Shown: positions 2,276 through 59,167 of the stretch, in pieces
How positions within the stretch are numbered: the stretch's first letter is position 1
Layout of the letters: the number at the start of each line of letters is the position of its first letter
DNA from: Escherichia coli
GTDB taxonomy: Bacteria; Pseudomonadota; Gammaproteobacteria; Enterobacterales; Enterobacteriaceae
Direction: 5' to 3' (one strand)
Assembly: GCF_003334785.1 (NCBI RefSeq)
Contig: NZ_QOWV01000005.1
DNA: 64,000 bases
The notes under the pieces: model-generated
The model's database searches: none
Told to the model about the DNA's origin: nothing
What the model saw: the letters and a program-made list of their open reading frames with translations, nothing else
Position numbers and translations under genes: made by a program

Positions 2276-3529
2276 ATGTCAGGATCCAACACTGCAATCA
2301 GCCGTCGTCGTTTACTGCAAGGCGCGGGTGCCATGTGGCTATTGAGCGTAAGTCAGGTCAGTCTGGCTGCGGTCAGCCAGGTCGTGGCGGTGCGCGTCTG
2401 GCCTGCGTCCAGCTACACCCGCGTGACGGTGGAATCAAATCGTCAGCTGAAATATAAGCAGTTCGCGTTGAGTAACCCTGAACGCGTGGTGGTGGATATC
2501 GAAGATGTAAACCTGAACTCGGTACTCAAGGGGATGGCGGCACAAATTCGTGCAGACGACCCGTTCATCAAGTCGGCGCGCGTCGGGCAATTTGACCCGC
2601 AAACCGTACGGATGGTTTTTGAATTAAAGCAAAACGTAAAACCGCAGCTGTTTGCCCTTGCGCCGGTCGCCGGGTTTAAAGAGCGTCTGGTGATGGACCT
2701 CTATCCGGCCAATGCACAGGATATGCAGGACCCGCTGCTGGCGCTGCTGGAGGATTACAACAAAGGCGACCTCGAAAAGCAGGTGCCGCCAGCGCAAAGT
2801 GGTCCACAACCGGGTAAAGCAGGGCGCGATCGTCCGATTGTCATTATGCTTGACCCTGGCCACGGTGGCGAAGACTCCGGTGCGGTGGGGAAATACAAAA
2901 CGCGCGAAAAAGATGTGGTATTGCAAATAGCTCGCCGTTTGCGCTCTCTGATCGAGAAAGAGGGCAATATGAAGGTGTACATGACGCGCAATGAAGACAT
3001 CTTCATTCCATTGCAAGTGCGCGTAGCAAAAGCCCAGAAACAGCGTGCTGACCTGTTTGTCTCTATCCATGCCGACGCCTTTACCAGTCGTCAGCCGAGC
3101 GGTTCCTCTGTGTTTGCGCTCTCAACCAAAGGTGCAACCAGTACTGCGGCAAAATATCTGGCACAAACCCAGAACGCCTCGGACTTGATTGGTGGCGTGA
3201 GCAAAAGCGGTGACCGCTATGTCGACCACACCATGTTCGATATGGTACAGTCGCTGACCATTGCCGACAGCCTGAAGTTTGGTAAAGCGGTACTGAATAA
3301 GCTCGGTAAAATCAACAAGCTGCATAAAAATCAAGTTGAACAGGCCGGGTTTGCCGTACTAAAGGCACCAGATATTCCCTCCATTCTGGTCGAAACGGCG
3401 TTTATCAGTAACGTTGAGGAAGAGCGTAAACTGAAAACGGCGACTTTCCAGCAGGAAGTTGCGGAGTCTATTCTTGCGGGGATTAAAGCGTATTTTGCCG
3501 ATGGGGCGACGCTGGCGAGAAGGGGATGA
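2276..3529 (+). CDS. amiC: N-acetylmuramoyl-L-alanine amidase AmiC (Tat signal peptide)
   Basis: ORF 2186..3529; internal ATG at 2276 gives [23 protein letters not shown] (twin-arginine signal) and 417 aa; amidase_3 domain. Confidence 0.9.
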
Positions 3530-50546: not shown

Positions 50547-50652
50547 AGGTCTCTAGTAATTGAAATAATAAATAACATGGAAAGCAGAGGTGTTGTGTGA
50601 GAGTAATCACGCTTCTGCTTTTTAAAATTATTTGACAATACGAATATCACAC

Positions 50653-50668
50653 TGTGATTACGATCACA
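50653..50668. promoter_or_regulatory. Consensus CRP site in the yqcE/ygcW divergent control region
   Basis: TGTGATTACGATCACA is a perfect TGTGA-N6-TCACA. Confidence 0.65.
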
Positions 50669-50721
50669 TTAGCAGTTATGCCCTTATGCTAAAAATTATC
50701 TCCAGTTACCAGAGATAATGA

Positions 50722-50768
50722 GAAAGGTAACTTCCCTCTCGCGGGGGAAGTTACCTTTCTTTTTTTTT
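50722..50768 (+). terminator. Strong intrinsic terminator in the ygcW 5' leader, 25 nt before the start codon
   Basis: GAAAGGTAACTTCCC-TCTCGCGG-GGGAAGTTACCTTTC (perfect 15-bp stem) followed by T9. Confidence 0.7.
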
Positions 50769-50792
50769 GCCTTACGGAAATTGGAGCTAACT

Positions 50793-51578
50793 ATGTCAAT
50801 CGAATCTCTCAATGCGTTCTCAATGGATTTTTTCTCCCTGAAAGGTAAAACCGCAATTGTTACCGGTGGGAATAGCGGTTTAGGCCAGGCATTTGCCATG
50901 GCGTTGGCCAAAGCTGGCGCAAATATCTTTATTCCTAGTTTCGTCAAAGATAACGGCGAAACAAAGGAAATGATTGAAAAACAGGGTGTTGAGGTGGACT
51001 TCATGCAGGTGGATATCACCGCAGAAGGCGCGCCGCAGAAGATTATCGCTGCTTGCTGTGAGCGTTTCGGTACAGTTGATATTCTGGTTAACAATGCCGG
51101 TATTTGTAAGCTGAATAAGGTGCTGGACTTCGGTCGTGCCGACTGGGATCCGATGATTGATGTGAACCTGACCGCCGCATTCGAGTTAAGCTATGAAGCT
51201 GCAAAAATTATGATCCCGCAGAAAAGCGGCAAAATTATTAATATCTGTTCATTGTTCTCTTACTTAGGTGGACAATGGTCACCTGCATATTCTGCCACTA
51301 AACATGCTCTTGCCGGGTTCACCAAAGCTTATTGTGATGAACTAGGTCAATATAATATTCAGGTAAATGGTATCGCCCCTGGCTATTATGCAACAGATAT
51401 TACGCTGGCGACACGCAGTAATCCAGAAACCAATCAGCGCGTTCTTGATCATATTCCGGCAAACCGTTGGGGCGATACTCAGGATTTAATGGGCGCAGCC
51501 GTATTCCTCGCAAGTCCGGCATCGAATTATGTCAACGGGCATTTATTAGTGGTTGATGGCGGTTATTTAGTGCGCTAA
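50793..51578 (+). CDS. ygcW: Short-chain dehydrogenase/reductase (KduD-like) YgcW
   Basis: ORF from 50718; ATG at 50793 with GGAG RBS gives MSIESLNAF… and 261 aa; TGGNSGLG Rossmann motif. Confidence 0.8.
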   Translation: MSIESLNAFSMDFFSLKGKTAIVTGGNSGLGQAFAMALAKAGANIFIPSFVKDNGETKEMIEKQGVEVDFMQVDITAEGAPQKIIAACCERFGTVDILVNNAGICKLNKVLDFGRADWDPMIDVNLTAAFELSYEAAKIMIPQKSGKIINICSLFSYLGGQWSPAYSATKHALAGFTKAYCDELGQYNIQVNGIAPGYYATDITLATRSNPETNQRVLDHIPANRWGDTQDLMGAAVFLASPASNYVNGHLLVVDGGYLVR

Positions 51579-51647
51579 CCCATAACGGTGGTTTCTGTTT
51601 TCTCTTATTAATGATTATTCCATTTTTATTATCAGGAAGGAATTACT

Positions 51648-53102
51648 ATGTCTTTATCTCGCGCAGCGATTGTCGACCAGCTAAAGGAAATTGTTGGTGC
51701 AGATCGCGTAATTACCGATGAAACAGTATTAAAGAAAAACAGTATTGACCGTTTTCGTAAATTTCCGGATATTCATGGCATTTATACTTTGCCGATTCCG
51801 GCAGCGGTCGTAAAACTCGGTTCCACAGAGCAAGTATCCCGTGTGCTGAATTTTATGAATGCGCACAAAATTAACGGTGTGCCGCGTACCGGTGCTTCCG
51901 CCACCGAAGGTGGGCTGGAAACTGTTGTAGAAAACTCGGTGGTGCTCGACGGCTCCGCCATGAATCAAATCATTAATATTGATATTGAGAATATGCAGGC
52001 GACGGCGCAATGTGGTGTTCCGCTGGAAGTGCTGGAAAACGCGTTGCGTGAAAAAGGTTACACCACGGGGCATTCTCCGCAGTCAAAGCCGCTGGCGCAG
52101 ATGGGCGGCCTGGTAGCAACCCGAAGTATCGGGCAGTTCTCCACACTCTACGGCGCAATCGAAGATATGGTCGTTGGTCTGGAAGCAGTATTGGCTGATG
52201 GCACCGTCACACGCATTAAAAACGTGCCACGCCGCGCGGCTGGCCCGGACATTCGTCACATCATCATCGGCAACGAAGGTGCATTGTGCTATATCACTGA
52301 AGTAACAGTGAAAATCTTTAAATTCACCCCGGAAAACAACCTCTTCTACGGCTATATCCTGGAAGACATGAAAACCGGCTTCAACATCCTGCGTGAAATC
52401 ATGGTGGAAGGGTATCGTCCGTCAATCGCTCGTTTGTATGACGCTGAAGATGGCACCCAACACTTCACCCATTTTGCCGACGGAAAATGCGTGCTGATCT
52501 TTATGGCTGAAGGTAACCCTCGCATTGCGAAGGTGACGGGCGAAGGGATTGCGGAAATCGTTGCCCGCTACCCGCAATGCCAGCGCGTGGACAGCAAGCT
52601 GATCGAAACCTGGTTTAACAACCTGAACTGGGGACCGGATAAAGTGGCTGCCGAACGTGTGCAGATCCTCAAAACCGGCAACATGGGCTTTACCACCGAA
52701 GTATCCGGCTGCTGGAGCTGCATCCACGAAATCTACGAAAGCGTTATTAACCGTATTCGTACTGAGTTCCCGCACGCCGACGACATCACCATGCTGGGCG
52801 GTCATTCCTCTCATAGCTATCAGAACGGCACCAACATGTACTTCGTCTACGATTACAACGTCGTTGACTGTAAGCCGGAAGAGGAAATCGACAAGTACCA
52901 CAATCCGCTCAACAAGATCATCTGTGAAGAAACCATTCGCCTCGGCGGTTCGATGGTGCACCACCACGGTATCGGTAAACATCGCGTTCACTGGAGCAAA
53001 CTGGAACACGGCAGCGCGTGGGCGTTGCTGGAAGGGCTGAAAAAGCAGTTCGATCCTAATGGCATTATGAATACGGGTACTATCTATCCGATTGAAAAAT
53101 AA
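51648..53102 (+). CDS. ygcU: FAD-linked oxidase (FAD-binding PCMH-type) YgcU
   Basis: 484 aa; FAD-binding type-4 oxidase architecture. Confidence 0.8.
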   Translation: MSLSRAAIVDQLKEIVGADRVITDETVLKKNSIDRFRKFPDIHGIYTLPIPAAVVKLGSTEQVSRVLNFMNAHKINGVPRTGASATEGGLETVVENSVVLDGSAMNQIINIDIENMQATAQCGVPLEVLENALREKGYTTGHSPQSKPLAQMGGLVATRSIGQFSTLYGAIEDMVVGLEAVLADGTVTRIKNVPRRAAGPDIRHIIIGNEGALCYITEVTVKIFKFTPENNLFYGYILEDMKTGFNILREIMVEGYRPSIARLYDAEDGTQHFTHFADGKCVLIFMAEGNPRIAKVTGEGIAEIVARYPQCQRVDSKLIETWFNNLNWGPDKVAAERVQILKTGNMGFTTEVSGCWSCIHEIYESVINRIRTEFPHADDITMLGGHSSHSYQNGTNMYFVYDYNVVDCKPEEEIDKYHNPLNKIICEETIRLGGSMVHHHGIGKHRVHWSKLEHGSAWALLEGLKKQFDPNGIMNTGTIYPIEK

Positions 53103-53143
53103 TGTGTCAGGCAGCGTTCCGCGATGACGGGGCGTTGCCTTTT

Positions 53144-53173
53144 CGGCTTCTCAGGCGAGAAGCCGTTCTTATT
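53144..53173 (+). terminator. Hairpin with weak U-tract between ygcU and ygcS
   Basis: CGGCTTCTC-AGGC-GAGAAGCCG followed by TTCTTATT. Confidence 0.45.
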
Positions 53174-53195
53174 ACCGGACAATGAAGGGGTAAAG

Positions 53196-54533
53196 ATGAA
53201 CACTTCACCGGTGCGAATGGATGATTTACCGCTTAACCGTTTTCACTGCCGCATTGCTGCGCTCACTTTCGGCGCACACCTGACCGACGGTTATGTTCTC
53301 GGCGTCATTGGTTACGCCATTATTCAGCTTACGCCCGCCATGCAACTGACGCCGTTTATGGCGGGAATGATCGGCGGCTCGGCGCTCCTTGGTTTGTTCC
53401 TTGGCAGCCTGGTTCTTGGGTGGATCTCCGACCATATTGGTCGGCAAAAAATCTTCACCTTCAGCTTTTTGCTGATTACGCTTGCTTCGTTTTTACAATT
53501 TTTTGCCACCACGCCAGAGCATCTTATTGGACTGCGCATTTTGATTGGCATTGGTCTGGGAGGCGATTATTCAGTAGGTCACACCTTGCTGGCTGAATTT
53601 TCCCCGCGCCGCCATCGCGGTATTTTGCTGGGCGCATTCAGCGTGGTGTGGACCGTAGGCTATGTGCTGGCAAGTATTGCCGGACATCACTTTATTTCCG
53701 AAAACCCGGAGGCCTGGCGCTGGCTACTGGCATCGGCAGCTCTGCCCGCGTTGTTGATTACGTTATTACGCTGGGGAACGCCAGAATCACCACGCTGGCT
53801 ACTGCGCCAGGGGCGTTTTGCAGAAGCTCACGCTATCGTGCATCGCTATTTTGGTCCCCATGTTTTACTGGGCGATGAAGTGGTAACGGCGACCCATAAA
53901 CACATCAAAACCTTGTTCTCTTCGCGTTACTGGCGGCGCACGGCGTTTAACAGCGTCTTCTTTGTCTGCCTCGTAATCCCATGGTTTGTGATTTATACCT
54001 GGCTGCCAACTATCGCCCAGACTATTGGTCTGGAAGATGCGCTGACTGCCAGCCTGATGCTTAATGCGTTGTTAATTGTGGGCGCGCTGCTGGGATTAGT
54101 TCTGACGCACCTGCTGGCACATCGCAAATTTTTGCTGGGAAGTTTTTTGCTGCTGGCGGCAACGCTGGTAGTCATGGCCTGTTTGCCTTCCGGCAGTTCA
54201 TTAACGCTGCTGCTTTTTGTTCTCTTCAGCACCACCATTTCGGCAGTCAGTAATCTGGTGGGCATTTTGCCTGCGGAAAGTTTTCCTACTGACATTCGCT
54301 CGCTGGGCGTCGGTTTTGCCACTGCCATGAGTCGACTTGGCGCGGCGGTAAGTACTGGCCTGCTGCCGTGGGTGCTGGCGCAGTGGGGAATGCAAGTCAC
54401 CTTATTGCTCCTGGCGACAGTGTTGTTGGTTGGTTTTGTTGTGACCTGGCTATGGGCACCAGAAACTAAAGCCCTCCCGCTGGTGGCGGCGGGAAATGTA
54501 GGAGGTGCGAATGAACATTCTGTTAGCGTTTAA
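53196..54533 (+). CDS. ygcS: MFS sugar-type transporter YgcS
   Basis: ORF from 53124; ATG at 53196 (MNTSPVRMDDLPLNRF) gives 445 aa. Confidence 0.8.
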   Translation: MNTSPVRMDDLPLNRFHCRIAALTFGAHLTDGYVLGVIGYAIIQLTPAMQLTPFMAGMIGGSALLGLFLGSLVLGWISDHIGRQKIFTFSFLLITLASFLQFFATTPEHLIGLRILIGIGLGGDYSVGHTLLAEFSPRRHRGILLGAFSVVWTVGYVLASIAGHHFISENPEAWRWLLASAALPALLITLLRWGTPESPRWLLRQGRFAEAHAIVHRYFGPHVLLGDEVVTATHKHIKTLFSSRYWRRTAFNSVFFVCLVIPWFVIYTWLPTIAQTIGLEDALTASLMLNALLIVGALLGLVLTHLLAHRKFLLGSFLLLAATLVVMACLPSGSSLTLLLFVLFSTTISAVSNLVGILPAESFPTDIRSLGVGFATAMSRLGAAVSTGLLPWVLAQWGMQVTLLLLATVLLVGFVVTWLWAPETKALPLVAAGNVGGANEHSVSV

Positions 54534-55290
54534 AGCCGAACCGGATGCCGGAATGCTGGCGGAAAAAGAGTGGCAGGCGGCGGCTCAGGGTAAAAGCGGA
54601 CCGGATATTTCGCTACTGCGAAGTTTACTCGGTGCTGATGAACAGGCCGCTGCCGCGCTGCTGTTGGCGCAGAGAAAAAACGGTACGCCGATGTCTTTAA
54701 CCGCGTTGAGCATGGGGGATGAACGGGCATTGCACTGGCTGCGCTATCTCATGGCTCTTGGGTTTGAGGAAGCTGTATTGCTGGAGACGGCGGCAGATCT
54801 GCGCTTTGCGCCGGAATTTGTCGCTCGCCATATTGCCGAATGGCAGCATCAGAATCCGCTGGATCTGATAATTACCGGCTGCCAAAGCAGCGAAGGGCAG
54901 AATGGGCAAACGCCATTTTTGCTGGCGGAAATGCTGGGCTGGCCCTGCTTCACCCAGGTGGAGCGTTTCACTCTCGACGCGCTGTTTATCACCCTCGAAC
55001 AGCGTACTGAACATGGGTTGCGTTGTTGCCGGGTTCGCTTGCCTGCGGTGATTGCCGTGCGTCAGTGCGGTGAAGTGGCCTTGCCAGTACCGGGAATGCG
55101 CCAGCGAATGGCTGCGGGGAAAGCAGAAATTATCCGTAAAACTGTTGCTGCCGAAATGCCAGCGATGCAGTGTCTGCAACTGGCAAGAGCAGAGCAACGA
55201 CGCGGAGCGACGCTGATTGATGGGCAAACGGTAGCAGAAAAAGCTCAAAAGCTATGGCAGGACTATTTACGCCAAAGGATGCAGCCATGA
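54511..55290 (+). CDS. ygcR: Electron-transfer-flavoprotein beta-subunit-like (FixA-like) YgcR
   Basis: About 259 aa; overlaps the ygcS 3' end and the ygcQ 5' end. Confidence 0.75.
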   Translation: MNILLAFKAEPDAGMLAEKEWQAAAQGKSGPDISLLRSLLGADEQAAAALLLAQRKNGTPMSLTALSMGDERALHWLRYLMALGFEEAVLLETAADLRFAPEFVARHIAEWQHQNPLDLIITGCQSSEGQNGQTPFLLAEMLGWPCFTQVERFTLDALFITLEQRTEHGLRCCRVRLPAVIAVRQCGEVALPVPGMRQRMAAGKAEIIRKTVAAEMPAMQCLQLARAEQRRGATLIDGQTVAEKAQKLWQDYLRQRMQP

Positions 55291-56147
55291 ATATCGCAAT
55301 TGTGACAATAAATCAGGAGAATGCCGCAATAGCAAGCTGGCTGGCGGCGCAGGATTTCAGCGGTTGTACCCTGGCGCACTGGCAGATTGAACCTCAGCCT
55401 GTAGTGGCGGAACAGGTGCTGGATGCGTTGGTGGAACAGTGGCAGCGAACGCCTGCGGACGTTGTTCTCTTTCCGCCGGGAACGTTTGGCGATGAACTGT
55501 CGACCCGGCTGGCCTGGCGTTTACATGGTGCAAGCATCTGCCAGGTGACTTCGTTAGATATTCCAACCGTAAGCGTGCGCAAATCCCACTGGGGAAATGC
55601 GCTAACGGCGACGCTGCAAACAGAAAAACGCCCGCTATGCCTTTCCCTGGCGCGTCAGGCGGGAGCAGCGAAAAACGCCACGTTGCCCTCTGGAATGCAA
55701 CAACTGAACATTGTCCCGGGTGCGCTTCCGGACTGGCTGGTTAGCACAGAGGATCTGAAAAATGTTACCCGCGACCCATTAGCTGAGGCCAGACGGGTGC
55801 TGGTGGTGGGGCAGGGCGGAGAGGCAGATAACCAGGAAATCGCTATGCTGGCAGAAAAGCTGGGAGCCGAAGTGGGCTACAGTCGGGCGCGAGTGATGAA
55901 CGGTGGCGTTGATGCTGAAAAAGTGATTGGTATTTCCGGACATCTGCTGGCACCTGAGGTGTGTATTGTTGTTGGCGCTTCTGGCGCAGCAGCGTTAATG
56001 GCGGGCGTACGCAATAGCAAGTTTGTGGTGGCGATTAATCATGACGCCAGCGCTGCGGTATTTTCACAGGCAGATGTTGGCGTGGTTGATGACTGGAAAG
56101 TGGTGCTGGAGGCACTGGTGACAAACATTCACGCAGATTGCCAATAA
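55287..56147 (+). CDS. ygcQ: Electron-transfer-flavoprotein alpha-subunit-like (FixB-like) YgcQ
   Basis: ORF from 55254; ATG at 55287 (MNIAIVTINQ) overlaps the ygcR stop (ATGA); 286 aa. Confidence 0.75.
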   Translation: MNIAIVTINQENAAIASWLAAQDFSGCTLAHWQIEPQPVVAEQVLDALVEQWQRTPADVVLFPPGTFGDELSTRLAWRLHGASICQVTSLDIPTVSVRKSHWGNALTATLQTEKRPLCLSLARQAGAAKNATLPSGMQQLNIVPGALPDWLVSTEDLKNVTRDPLAEARRVLVVGQGGEADNQEIAMLAEKLGAEVGYSRARVMNGGVDAEKVIGISGHLLAPEVCIVVGASGAAALMAGVRNSKFVVAINHDASAAVFSQADVGVVDDWKVVLEALVTNIHADCQ

Positions 56148-56149
56148 CG

Positions 56150-56260
56150 TGTTGCCGGATGATCCTGCCTACGGTTCTGGCCTGGGGACTTGTAGGCCTG
56201 ATAAGACGCGTCAAGCGTCGCATCAGGCGCTGAATGTCGGATGTGGCGTGCGGCCTACAA
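56150..56260. repeat. REP/BIME cluster between convergent ygcQ and ygcP
   Basis: GTAGGCCTGATAAGACGCGTCAAGCGTCGCATCAGGC plus flanking GCCGGATG / GCGGCCTAC units. Confidence 0.7.
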
Positions 56261-56294
56261 ATCAAACCAAATTCAATTGGTTACGATTATCCCG

Positions 56295-56870
56295 TCAAAG
56301 TAATTTTTTCGCTAACGTCCAGACCCCGGTATTCGTGGTGGAAAGCGCCACGACACCCGCGTTAATCGCATTACGCGCATCTTCTTCATCGCACACCAGC
56401 CCACCGGCAATCAGCGGTTGGCGGATTTTCTCTGTCACCCAGCCCAGCACTTTGGGCATACAGCCTGGCAGGATCTCAATACAATCCGGATTCGATTGCG
56501 CAACTTGCTTATCAATGTTGTGAAACGAAATTGAATCAACAATAAACAGGCGATGAATACAGAAAAAACCTTCCGCTCTTGCCGCTTTCAACATTGAGGC
56601 TTTGGTACTGATAATGCCGTCCGCCTCGGTCACCAGTTTCAAAAACTGAATAACGACTTCTTTATTTGACGCGCCTTCCAGCAAATCAACATGAATAAAA
56701 GCATATTTCCCGGCGTTCTTAATCTTTTTAACGATATTACTGATGGTGCAGATATTGCCGTACAACACGGAAATAAATTGGCATTCAGAATCGATTGCCA
56801 GTTGCAGGCTGGCATTATCTTTAACGGCAGCAATCACCGGATTCTGGCGGAGCAGGTGTAAGAGGGGCAT
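56295..56870 (-). CDS. ygcP: GlpP-like putative RNA-binding transcription antiterminator YgcP
   Basis: 191 aa; GlpP-family assignment from memory. Confidence 0.75.
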   Translation of the reverse strand: MPLLHLLRQNPVIAAVKDNASLQLAIDSECQFISVLYGNICTISNIVKKIKNAGKYAFIHVDLLEGASNKEVVIQFLKLVTEADGIISTKASMLKAARAEGFFCIHRLFIVDSISFHNIDKQVAQSNPDCIEILPGCMPKVLGWVTEKIRQPLIAGGLVCDEEDARNAINAGVVALSTTNTGVWTLAKKLL

Positions 56871-56886
56871 AAATTATCCTTATTAT

Positions 56887-57147
56887 TTATCCAAAGCGGT
56901 AGGTGATGCCGAATCCGGAAGGCGGATAGCGCCACTGTTGTAGTGTTGATTCGTCGCACAGCAAACGGCAGGTGCCACACTCCAGGCAACTGCGATAGTC
57001 AATACGTAAGTTACCTTCCGGTGTGAGCGAAAAAAGACCTGCCGGACAGGCGTTAATCAACCGTTCTGCCGTCTGGCGCTCAACGGAGTCAGCCGGAACA
57101 ATGTGCGGCGCATCAGCAACGCGCCAGAGATTACGGGCTACAGACAT
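56887..57147 (-). CDS. ygcO: Ferredoxin-like protein (FixX-like) YgcO
   Basis: ORF to 57183; start MSVARNLW at 57147 gives 86 aa; CxxCxxC cluster (CLECGTCRLLC). Confidence 0.75.
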   Translation of the reverse strand: MSVARNLWRVADAPHIVPADSVERQTAERLINACPAGLFSLTPEGNLRIDYRSCLECGTCRLLCDESTLQQWRYPPSGFGITYRFG

Positions 57148-58409
57148 CGCAGACTCCTGATAACATCGCCCGCCAGATGCCACAGGCCGTGACGACGTAA
57201 ATGATGCCAGAATAACTGGCGCAGCGGTGGAACAGGTTTATCACCCTGATCCCATAAATCGCGGGAAATATCCTGCATTAACGCAGGCCACGTACGGTAC
57301 CATCCCGGGCGTTGCAAAAGCGCCGGAACATGCTGATAACGCTGTAGAACATCCCACAGCAGGCTGCGCTCTACGTTGTGATGATAAAGCGGAAACAGAT
57401 TTTGCGGCTCGCGGTGCTGGCAGGCGCTTATCAGCGTTTGTGCCGCCGCCTGCGCGCCAGTCAGCGCCATATCCATGCCGCGCACGGAAATTCCGGTATT
57501 GACGCAACTGCGCAACGCATCGCCCACCAGCAGCCAGCCGTTACCGGCGTATTGCACCGGCATACTGTGCAAGCCACCTTCTGGCACCAGATGCGCACCA
57601 TACTCCAGTGATTCCGTGTTTTTGATAAGCGGGCGCACTGCCGGATGCGCTTTAAAGCGAGTCAGCAGCTCGCTTGCCGGAACACGACTTTGCGTAAGGG
57701 AAGAGAGCGGGCAAACAATCCCTAACGAGAGCGTTTGTTGATTAGTATAAAGAAATGCGCCGCCGGGTAAGTCATCACAGATCCTGCCGCTGAACAGCAA
57801 CGCTGCGCCTTCGTTATTCTCCAGATGAAAACGTTCTTCAATAGCGGATGTTTCCAGCGACAGCACTTCTTTGATCCCCAACGCCATCGCTTCGCCAGCA
57901 GGACGAGCCACTAACCCGTGACGTTCAGCCAGGACGCTGTTGGCACCTTCTGCCAGCACCACATAACGGGCGCGGAGAATATCGTCACCACAAATAACGC
58001 CACAGACTCTGCCGTTTTCTTCATACAGTGCATCCACCGTCGCTCCGGGGATGCATTCGACACCTTCTTTTTCGGCTTCGGCAACCAGCCACGGATCGAA
58101 TCGTGCACGTAATACACTCCAGGATTCACCGCCGGGCTGTAAGCTGGAAAACGTCGTTACGCCATCGGGCGTTAACAGGGAAAGGCTTTCGTGAGTGATG
58201 CGTCGTTCAAGAGGCGCGGTCAGATGAAATTGCGGGAGGAGTTCCGCGAGTGCATGGGTATATAACCGCCCGCCGGAAAGATTTTTGCTGCCGGGGATTT
58301 CAGCGCGTTCCAGTAACAAAACGGATAAACCCGCTCGCGCGCAGCGTAACGCGCAAGCGGTGCCTGCAATACCGGCACCAATAATAATAATGTCGCAGTC
58401 GTCTTCCAT
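57138..58409 (-). CDS. ygcN: FAD-dependent oxidoreductase (FixC / ETF-quinone oxidoreductase-like) YgcN
   Basis: ORF to 58439; start MEDDCDIIIIGAGIAG (FAD-binding GxGxxG) at 58409 gives 423 aa. Confidence 0.8.
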   Translation of the reverse strand: MEDDCDIIIIGAGIAGTACALRCARAGLSVLLLERAEIPGSKNLSGGRLYTHALAELLPQFHLTAPLERRITHESLSLLTPDGVTTFSSLQPGGESWSVLRARFDPWLVAEAEKEGVECIPGATVDALYEENGRVCGVICGDDILRARYVVLAEGANSVLAERHGLVARPAGEAMALGIKEVLSLETSAIEERFHLENNEGAALLFSGRICDDLPGGAFLYTNQQTLSLGIVCPLSSLTQSRVPASELLTRFKAHPAVRPLIKNTESLEYGAHLVPEGGLHSMPVQYAGNGWLLVGDALRSCVNTGISVRGMDMALTGAQAAAQTLISACQHREPQNLFPLYHHNVERSLLWDVLQRYQHVPALLQRPGWYRTWPALMQDISRDLWDQGDKPVPPLRQLFWHHLRRHGLWHLAGDVIRSLRCL

Positions 58410-58486
58410 GTCATGCCCCAGATATCCAGAACACAACACCCTAACATAGCGTTACTTAAGGGAAATTGACCGCCGACACACTCTTA

Positions 58487-58852
58487 TCATTCGCCGCGAT
58501 AGATACAACCTGCGGTGCAGGTTTCTTTTACCATCACCGCACTTAACAGCGGCACAACGGGTTTAACCTGATCCCAAATCCATTTTGCTAAAACCTCGCT
58601 GGTTGGGTTTTCCAGACCTGGAATATCATTGAGATAATGGTGATCGAGGCGCTCGTAGGTTGGTTTAAACGCCGCTTTTAGTTCAGCGAAATCGATAATC
58701 CAGCCCGTATGCGGATCGACTTCCCCGGTAATTTCCAGTCGCACCATAAAGGAATGCCCGTGCAGGCGACCACATTTATGCCCTTCCGGGACGTGTGGTA
58801 AGCGGTGAGCGGCTTCGAAGGTGAAATCTTTAAATAACGTGGTGGACATCAT
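58487..58852 (-). CDS. queD: 6-carboxy-5,6,7,8-tetrahydropterin synthase
   Basis: ORF to 58936; start [18 protein letters not shown] at 58852 gives 121 aa. Confidence 0.85.
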
Positions 58853-59167
58853 AATTTCTCTACAGGACGATAAAACCGCCGTAGAGTACCGGAAAGGCTG
58901 TTTTTTCGCATTATCTAAAACGACTTTGTTGCGCAAAATCGCTGATTTATCTTAATGATTGGCTAAATTCATTTGTTTTTCATTAGGTTGGTTAATCTAT
59001 TTTGTTGTTAAAGACTATTGCTAAAACAGGTTAGTCGATTTGGTTATTAGTTATCGCTATCCCGTCTTTAATCCACACCGTTTGCCCCGTTAACCTTACC
59101 TTCTCTTCTGTTTTATGGGCGCTGACAGGGCGCAGAAACAGCTTTGCTTACTGGAACATAACGACGC

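Follow-up and report, generated by a model that had tools for sequence, protein, structure and literature searches.

A conserved terminator-type hairpin between ygcU and ygcS, best read as an ordinary intra-operon element of the Escherichia coli ygc cluster

In Escherichia coli, terminators or attenuators are found inside operons, as between rpsU and dnaG in rpsU-dnaG-rpoD and between rplL and rpoB. Intercistronic hairpins can also stabilise mRNA, two examples being the REP element between malE and malF and the hairpin between pufBA and pufLM of Rhodobacter. In Bacillus subtilis, glpD, glpFK and glpTQ are preceded by GlpP-dependent leader terminators, and GlpP acts on 5'-UTR terminators that each carry a binding site of their own (PMC9604022). 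The element considered here is a hairpin, H2, located between ygcU and ygcS in the ygc cluster of E. coli. With the rpsU-dnaG and rplL-rpoB elements it shares a GC-rich hairpin and a U-rich tail placed between co-directional genes of one transcription unit, downstream genes without a promoter of their own, and an expected fixed step-down in expression. It differs from them in that its termination is predicted, that its U-tract is interrupted in E. coli, that two tandem hairpins are present in Escherichia but one elsewhere, and that its stem core is unusually conserved. Like the malE-malF and puf elements, H2 is a stable stem-loop at the boundary of genes needed at different levels; unlike them, it combines a terminator-typical U-rich tail with a single-copy sequence that is neither REP nor BIME. 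The GlpP leaders come close in two respects, namely that the ygc cluster encodes a GlpP-family protein, YgcP, and that transcription of catabolic genes has to pass a terminator hairpin. However, H2 is not in a 5' UTR, is devoid of the ygc leader motif described below and is missed by the covariance model built for the leaders.

The window, i.e. the whole 64-kb stretch of DNA that was analysed, contains the E. coli ygc cluster, annotated in the order ygcE and yqcE (minus strand), ygcW, ygcU, ygcS, ygcR and ygcQ (plus strand), and ygcP, ygcO, ygcN and queD (minus strand). Of 5426 complete E. coli genomes, 5095 match a 1.1-kb query around the ygcU-ygcS spacer at their ygcU/ygcS region. The ygcU coding sequence extends from 51648 to 53102 and ends with a TAA codon at 53100-53102 on the plus strand, as judged from the list of open reading frames, the sequence and the RefSeq annotation of identical DNA. 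The spacer, taken from this stop codon to the MG1655-type ygcS ATG at 53196, comprises the 93 nt from 53103 to 53195. It consists of two tandem hairpins, H1 and H2, followed by 30 nt carrying the ygcS Shine-Dalgarno sequence, and its predicted folding energy as a whole is -44.6 kcal/mol (z = -4.4). A sensitive blastn search of 5093 E. coli genomes found the spacer at a median of one place per genome; this single copy rules against H2 being a copy of a REP/BIME or ERIC repeat. When the region 48000-60000 was scanned against Rfam, no match was obtained inside 53103-53195 at E <=10. Elsewhere in the cluster, a REP-type element lies in the convergent ygcQ/ygcP gap (56195-56268), where Rfam naRNA4 gives a sub-threshold match (34 bits, E = 0.005).

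H2 itself occupies positions 53144-53165 of the plus strand, as delineated by folding, a terminator scan and conservation. Its sequence is CGGCUUCUC-AGGC-GAGAAGCCG, then UUCUUAUUA. The 5' arm CGGCTTCTC (53144-53152) and the 3' arm GAGAAGCCG (53157-53165) form a 9-bp stem with six G-C pairs, closed by the tetraloop AGGC (53153-53156). An interrupted U-rich tail lies directly 3' of the stem on the same strand (TTCTTATTA, 53166-53174), with 6 T among its first 8 positions, the scan criterion being at least 5 T in 8. The hairpin and U-rich tract that the initial annotation placed in this 93-bp spacer are exact in sequence. Folded alone, H2 reaches -14.9 kcal/mol (z = -4.5), and none of 200 shuffled sequences folds as well. 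These dimensions, 9 bp with six G-C pairs and a 4-nt loop, fall within those of intrinsic terminators, whose stems are GC-rich and of about 5-14 bp, with loops of 3-8 nt; the tail UUCUUAUU likewise has the U content of a terminator, 6 U in 8, though it is interrupted. The consensus scan classes H2 as terminator-like on the plus strand only, the minus strand presenting AAAAGGCA in place of the U-rich tail UUCUUAUU. A score of the d'Aubenton-Carafa type came out negative for most hairpins with modern energies, even for several whose stem is followed by a run of 5-6 U, and was not relied on.

Perfect hairpins of at least 9 bp are more frequent in the window than in its dinucleotide shuffles (10 versus 1.7 ± 1.5). 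At the frequency of the shuffles, such a hairpin is expected by chance in a given 93-nt spacer only about 0.0025 times. H2 is thus a real structure, unlikely to have arisen by chance.

The position of H2 relative to ygcS depends on which start codon is used. In MG1655 ygcS starts at 53196 (445 aa), which gives a coding sequence of 53196-54533, and the combination of a Shine-Dalgarno sequence, GAAGGGG (53184-53190), with this ATG (53184-53198 in all, plus strand) is supported by the cross-genus alignment as well as by the MG1655 annotation. Residue 1 of YgcS aligns with the ATG at 53196 in all Enterobacteriaceae loci. By contrast, the RefSeq/PGAP annotation of E. coli starts ygcS at the ATG at 53124 (469 aa), inside the loop of H1 and without a Shine-Dalgarno sequence, which would place H2 within the coding sequence. 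A coding explanation of the hairpin on this basis was rejected: the other genera have no such extension, their spacers (52-64 nt) are not multiples of three, and they contain no upstream in-frame ATG. To judge by the alignment, PGAP probably places the start 24 codons too far upstream, and the 469-aa version is the one annotated in thousands of RefSeq E. coli genomes. A mini-ORF, AUG AAG GGG UAA (53182-53193), overlaps the ygcS Shine-Dalgarno sequence and has none of its own. Related species retain its AUG, with a stop just ahead of the ygcS start or overlapping it as AUGA, and the mini-ORF is missing from the Pluralibacter group and from C. amalonaticus; it is probably incidental.

Conservation of H2 was analysed in a comparative sample obtained by a YgcU scan with one genome per species, which yielded 67 loci on each of which the ygc genes were mapped. 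In all Enterobacteriaceae loci where ygcS follows ygcU (35/35, 30 distinct sequences), a hairpin precedes the ygcS ATG by 18-32 nt. These loci span Escherichia, Citrobacter, Klebsiella, Raoultella, Superficieibacter, Pluralibacter, Mixta, Yokenella, Cedecea, Buttiauxella and others, and their ygcU-ygcS spacers usually measure 52-64 nt. Two contigs of the sample look mislabelled or contaminated: one assigned to a Planctomycetota MAG (L005), whose YgcU is 100% identical to that of the window and whose spacer is identical, and one assigned to Chryseobacterium sp. (L029), which carries a typical Enterobacteriaceae ygc cluster. In a MAFFT alignment, 86% of the cells of the H2 helix are paired; sliding the 3' partner by 1-3 columns lowers this to 41-59%. 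Both members have changed in 6 of the 11 pairs, with a covariation score of 0.239 versus at most 0.142 in the slid controls. A model-fitted alignment, which leans towards structure, gives 87.7% paired cells against 42-59% in the slid versions, both-side changes in 7 of 11 pairs and a covariation score of 0.252. The H2 helix thus shows the compensatory change in evolution looked for in an intrinsic terminator. Among the cells that are not Watson-Crick pairs, G.U is found 34 times and A.C 11 times; this excess of G.U indicates that selection acts on the plus-strand RNA, since neither a DNA palindrome nor a minus-strand RNA would be expected to produce it.

The tails of the H2 orthologues bear on the question of what the hairpin does. 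In C. sedlakii the stem is GGUGGCUUCCCGCUCGGGAAGCCAC, followed by 8 U (-21.7 kcal/mol, z = -6); nine consecutive T follow the last C, two of them pairing at the base of the stem. A MAG (L018) has U8 (T8) and the Pluralibacter group U6 (T6). By sequence, then, many H2 orthologues are canonical terminators with runs of 6-8 U. C. koseri, C. youngae, the Cedecea group and Buttiauxella, on the other hand, have poor tails yet keep the hairpin, which is what one would expect if H2, together with H1, were a post-transcriptional stability or processing element only and caused no termination by RNA polymerase. Under that hypothesis 3'-to-5' exonucleases would be blocked after endonucleolytic cleavage downstream, and the ygcWU segment would outlive ygcSRQ; the stem is stable enough for this, and the outcome, more ygcWU than ygcSRQ, is the one expected of a terminator too. 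An exonuclease barrier needs no U-tract, however, and in most lineages the stem runs straight into a U-rich tail, which in several is an uninterrupted stretch of 6-8 U; nor is H2, as a single-copy sequence, an element of the REP kind. A pure stability role is consequently a possible but minority explanation. The two roles are not mutually exclusive, and in the species with poor tails (C. koseri, C. youngae, Buttiauxella) the hairpin may be mainly a stability element. The core of the stem, GGCUUC/GAAGCC, is more conserved in sequence than a generic terminator needs, which hints at an additional constraint.

Outside this set of loci, other hairpins are found at the end of ygcU. In more distant Enterobacterales (Limnobaculum, Budvicia, Rahnella, Serratia) the ygcU stop is immediately followed by unrelated GC-rich hairpins, for example GACCGGGGCCGUC...GACGGCCCGGUUUUU in Limnobaculum, and a GC-rich hairpin also follows ygcU where it is the last gene of its unit (among others in Erwinia, Ewingella and Serratia proteamaculans). 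In Firmicutes, ygcR/ygcQ or ygcE follows ygcU by 5-40 nt and no hairpin is present; the element therefore accompanies the Enterobacterales arrangement with ygcS. As regards the flanking genes, identity to E. coli across genera (loci L009-L034) is 78-97% for YgcE, YqcE, YgcW, YgcU and YgcP and 68-76% for YgcS, and falls in the range 36-62% for YgcR, YgcQ, YgcO and YgcN in Pluralibacter, Mixta and Cedecea. H2 coincides exactly with the border between the conserved core and a fast-evolving or exchanged ygcSRQ module.

The initial annotation overlooked H1, the stronger of the two hairpins, which stands just upstream of H2 (-21.8 kcal/mol, z = -5.1). H1 occupies 53109-53140 of the plus strand, as defined by folding and by comparison of the loci, and begins 6 nt past the ygcU stop; its 13-bp stem is formed by AGGCAGCGUUCCG and CGGGGCGUUGCCU around the sequence CGAUGA, with UUUU (53140-53143) after it. 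The ATG at 53124 falls within the loop. H1 is found in all six loci of the Escherichia lineage, with changes from U.G to C-G and from U.G to U-A, and is absent from the 29 other Enterobacteriaceae loci. The interval between the ygcU stop and H2 also receives ERIC/IRU-like palindromic inserts, which were found in Klebsiella spallanzanii (L009, 7456-7600), Raoultella terrigena (L058, 7456-7590), Enterobacter sp. 10-1 (L013, 7456-7670) and, in a shorter form, C. koseri (L010, 3689-3745). H1 and the right end of the inserts of Klebsiella, Raoultella and Enterobacter, which occupy the same site, have AGGCAGCGT..GATGACG in common, and for this reason H1 may be a relic of the end of an ERIC-like insert. 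It differs from ERIC/IRU elements in measuring only about 35 nt and in having no other copy in E. coli according to BLAST, and H2 lies outside the inserts. Within E. coli, strain CFSAN018748 carries an IS200C (L073, about 2569-3300) directly after the H2 tail, near TTAC at 53172-53175, and there PGAP calls the 445-aa ygcS; strain EC5 has an IS1A insertion within the 1.1-kb region, in or near the spacer.

A spacer that behaves as an insertion hot spot raises the possibility that H2 is a non-functional relic, either a leftover operon-end terminator or the scar of a mobile element, which is merely tolerated where it stands. The ERIC-like inserts, the two insertion sequences of E. coli and the possible origin of H1 as an insertion scar all speak for it. 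Against it, H2 persists, through compensatory changes, in genera where the surrounding spacer sequence is diverged or replaced, and it is invariant in divergent E. coli. I consider this explanation improbable.

Whether ygcS, ygcR and ygcQ could be expressed independently of H2 was assessed by looking for a promoter. The scan revealed no sigma-70-like promoter between H2 and ygcS, and the gap from H2 to the ygcS ATG, 18-32 nt across the 35 loci, is too short to hold one; a ygcS promoter in or after H2 was rejected on these two grounds. Since there is no promoter between H2 and ygcS, the three genes must be transcribed through H2.

Another possibility is a role in the translation of ygcS, either by controlling access to the ribosome-binding site or through gating by ribosomes that terminate at ygcU. 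The sequence UUACCGGACAAUGAAGGGGUA between H2 and the ATG is conserved from Escherichia to Citrobacter, Klebsiella and Yokenella, as might be expected if it took part in such control. Moreover, the hairpin starts 6-10 nt past the ygcU stop in the 22 loci that have neither H1 nor an insert (with one exception, 14 nt), and at 6-10 nt it is close enough for a terminating ribosome to reach it; the other 13 loci have it further downstream. The region from the tail to the start codon, however, has no significant structure (z = -0.25; 80 of 200 shuffled sequences fold equally well), the ygcS Shine-Dalgarno sequence is not paired with H2 in either the MFE or the centroid structure, and the Pluralibacter and Mixta group retains H2 but lacks the conserved block downstream of it. 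Translational control of ygcS by H2 hence appears very improbable.

The remaining possibility raised by the initial annotation was that H2 is a second regulated antitermination point. YgcP or another factor would then suppress termination there when inducer is present. The case for it comes from the cluster itself. YgcP is a full-length GlpP-family G3P_antiterm protein (PF04309, E = 1.6e-62), and a strongly conserved leader RNA element looks like its target; the element is present in two divergent copies, at 50702-50772 (plus strand) before ygcW and at 50496-50563 (minus strand) before yqcE. The consensus of the leaders is cCAGUUACuAGAGA..AUGAGAAAgGUAAC-stem-loop-UUUCUC then U8. The ygcW leader is extremely conserved, reading CAGUUACYAGAGA..AUGAGAAARGUAACUUCCC-loop-GGGAAGUURCYUUUCUC, then U8-9. 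The AGUUACY segment in its upstream part complements the terminator's 5' arm, and the two covary (AGUUACC/GGUAACU, AGUUACU/AGUAACU, AGUUGCC/GGCGACU); on this comparative evidence the ygcW and yqcE leaders combine an antiterminator and a terminator. A covariance model of the leaders, R1, scores 70-91 bits on ygcW leaders and 52.9 bits on the yqcE leader of the window. It finds both copies in every Enterobacterales locus holding the region, and in Firmicutes it finds single or double copies beside homologues of ygcP, ygcW, ygcU or ygcE, at 31-45 bits. The Rfam scan of 48000-60000 gave no match to this leader element at E <=10. The element looks like an undescribed cis-regulatory RNA family and is probably the RNA target of YgcP; tied in this way to YgcP, the leaders are more interesting biology than H2. 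Between the two divergent leaders lies a perfect CRP consensus palindrome, TGTGATTACGATCACA (50649-50664), and yqcE/ygcW is among the top predicted CRP sites in PhyloScan (PMC1794230).

H2 shares one feature with the ygcW leader terminator, the CUUCCC/GGGAAG of the upper stem, which is common to both in many species. This resemblance does not co-vary: Cedecea and Buttiauxella keep CUUCCC in the leader, while their H2 stems are GGUCGGCUC and GCGGUCUC. The leader motif CAGUUACYAGAGA..GAGAAARGUAAC, which provides the antiterminator pairing, precedes H2 in none of the loci, and the regular expression retrieves only the ygcW and yqcE leaders. Similarly, R1, which gives 31-91 bits on true leaders, has no match at H2 in the window at E <=10, and its only scores at H2 elsewhere, 13.5-18.5 bits in two other loci (E of 0.6-7.5), are at noise level; on H1 it gives 8-9 bits (E of 4-7). 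H2 as a third copy of the leader element was rejected because both the motif scan and R1 fail on it, and the label 'third leader hairpin' given to it in the initial annotation is a misnomer: H2 is intercistronic, with no promoter-like site nearby, rather than part of a 5' UTR, where the known GlpP targets are located (PMC9604022). A thermodynamic search predicted no structure competing with H2, but this search is of low power and also misses the covarying antiterminator helix of the ygcW leader. Regulated antitermination at H2 is not supported by these comparisons and is the least probable of the explanations considered here.

A looser form of regulation would make H2 a gated attenuator, either bound by a factor at its conserved stem (GGCUUCCC/GGGAAGCC) or suppressed by ribosomes, so that ygcSRQ would be coupled to an inducer or to translation of ygcU. 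The factor would be YgcP, acting through the CUUCCC/GGGAAG upper stem, or some other RNA-binding protein. The ribosome route, by which the 6-10 nt spacing of the insert-free loci would let a ribosome ending ygcU suppress the hairpin, is speculative. Gating of either kind is unlikely.

Published 3' ends were consulted for MG1655, for which complete Term-seq tables are available (Adams et al. 2021, PMC7815308). They contain a 3' end at 2900311(-), corresponding to the ygcW leader terminator, and another at 2900556(+), corresponding to the yqcE leader terminator; neither is classed as Rho-dependent, and both have high intrinsic-terminator scores (PMC7815308). The same tables have no 3' end in the spacer (2897871-2897963), under conditions (LB, M63 glucose) in which transcripts end at the leader terminators; since transcription has already stopped at the leaders, this absence carries no information about H2. 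The TERMITe supplements have no ygc entry, and the papers naming ygc genes contain nothing on transcript structure.

Taken together, these data make it probable, on balance, that H2 is a partial Rho-independent terminator and 3'-end hairpin that closes the ygcWU core, ygcSRQ being expressed by read-through. Of the two interpretations offered in the initial annotation, the first, partial termination by which ygcS, ygcR and ygcQ would be expressed at a level different from ygcW and ygcU, has the best support, on comparative grounds: the conservation of the hairpin, the U-tracts, the presence of hairpins after ygcU in other lineages and the lack of a promoter all point to it. Termination at H2, and its efficiency, I infer from these features. 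In this model H2 would act as a terminator-type hairpin on the plus-strand transcript, backed in Escherichia by H1 upstream, and would delimit the conserved ygcW-ygcU core unit at its 3' end. Of the RNA polymerases that get past the ygcW leader, some would halt and release the transcript, either at H1-UUUU or at H2-UUCUUAUU. With its U-tract interrupted in E. coli, H2 is predicted to terminate incompletely, and H1-UUUU may add to this termination. The hairpin remaining at the 3' end would also shield the ygcWU message from 3' exonucleases. The other polymerases would read through, this being the only apparent route to ygcS, ygcR and ygcQ, and the outcome would be a fixed step-down of the MFS transporter and the ETF subunits relative to the two upstream enzymes.

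H2 is best read, then, as an ordinary, unannotated intra-operon hairpin of the terminator type, and as a regulatory principle it is ordinary. If the partial-terminator reading is correct, a ygcW-ygcU core and a ygcS-ygcR-ygcQ module dependent on read-through would constitute the internal architecture of a cryptic catabolic cluster of E. coli, and this two-module organisation would matter for attempts at inducing or engineering the pathway.
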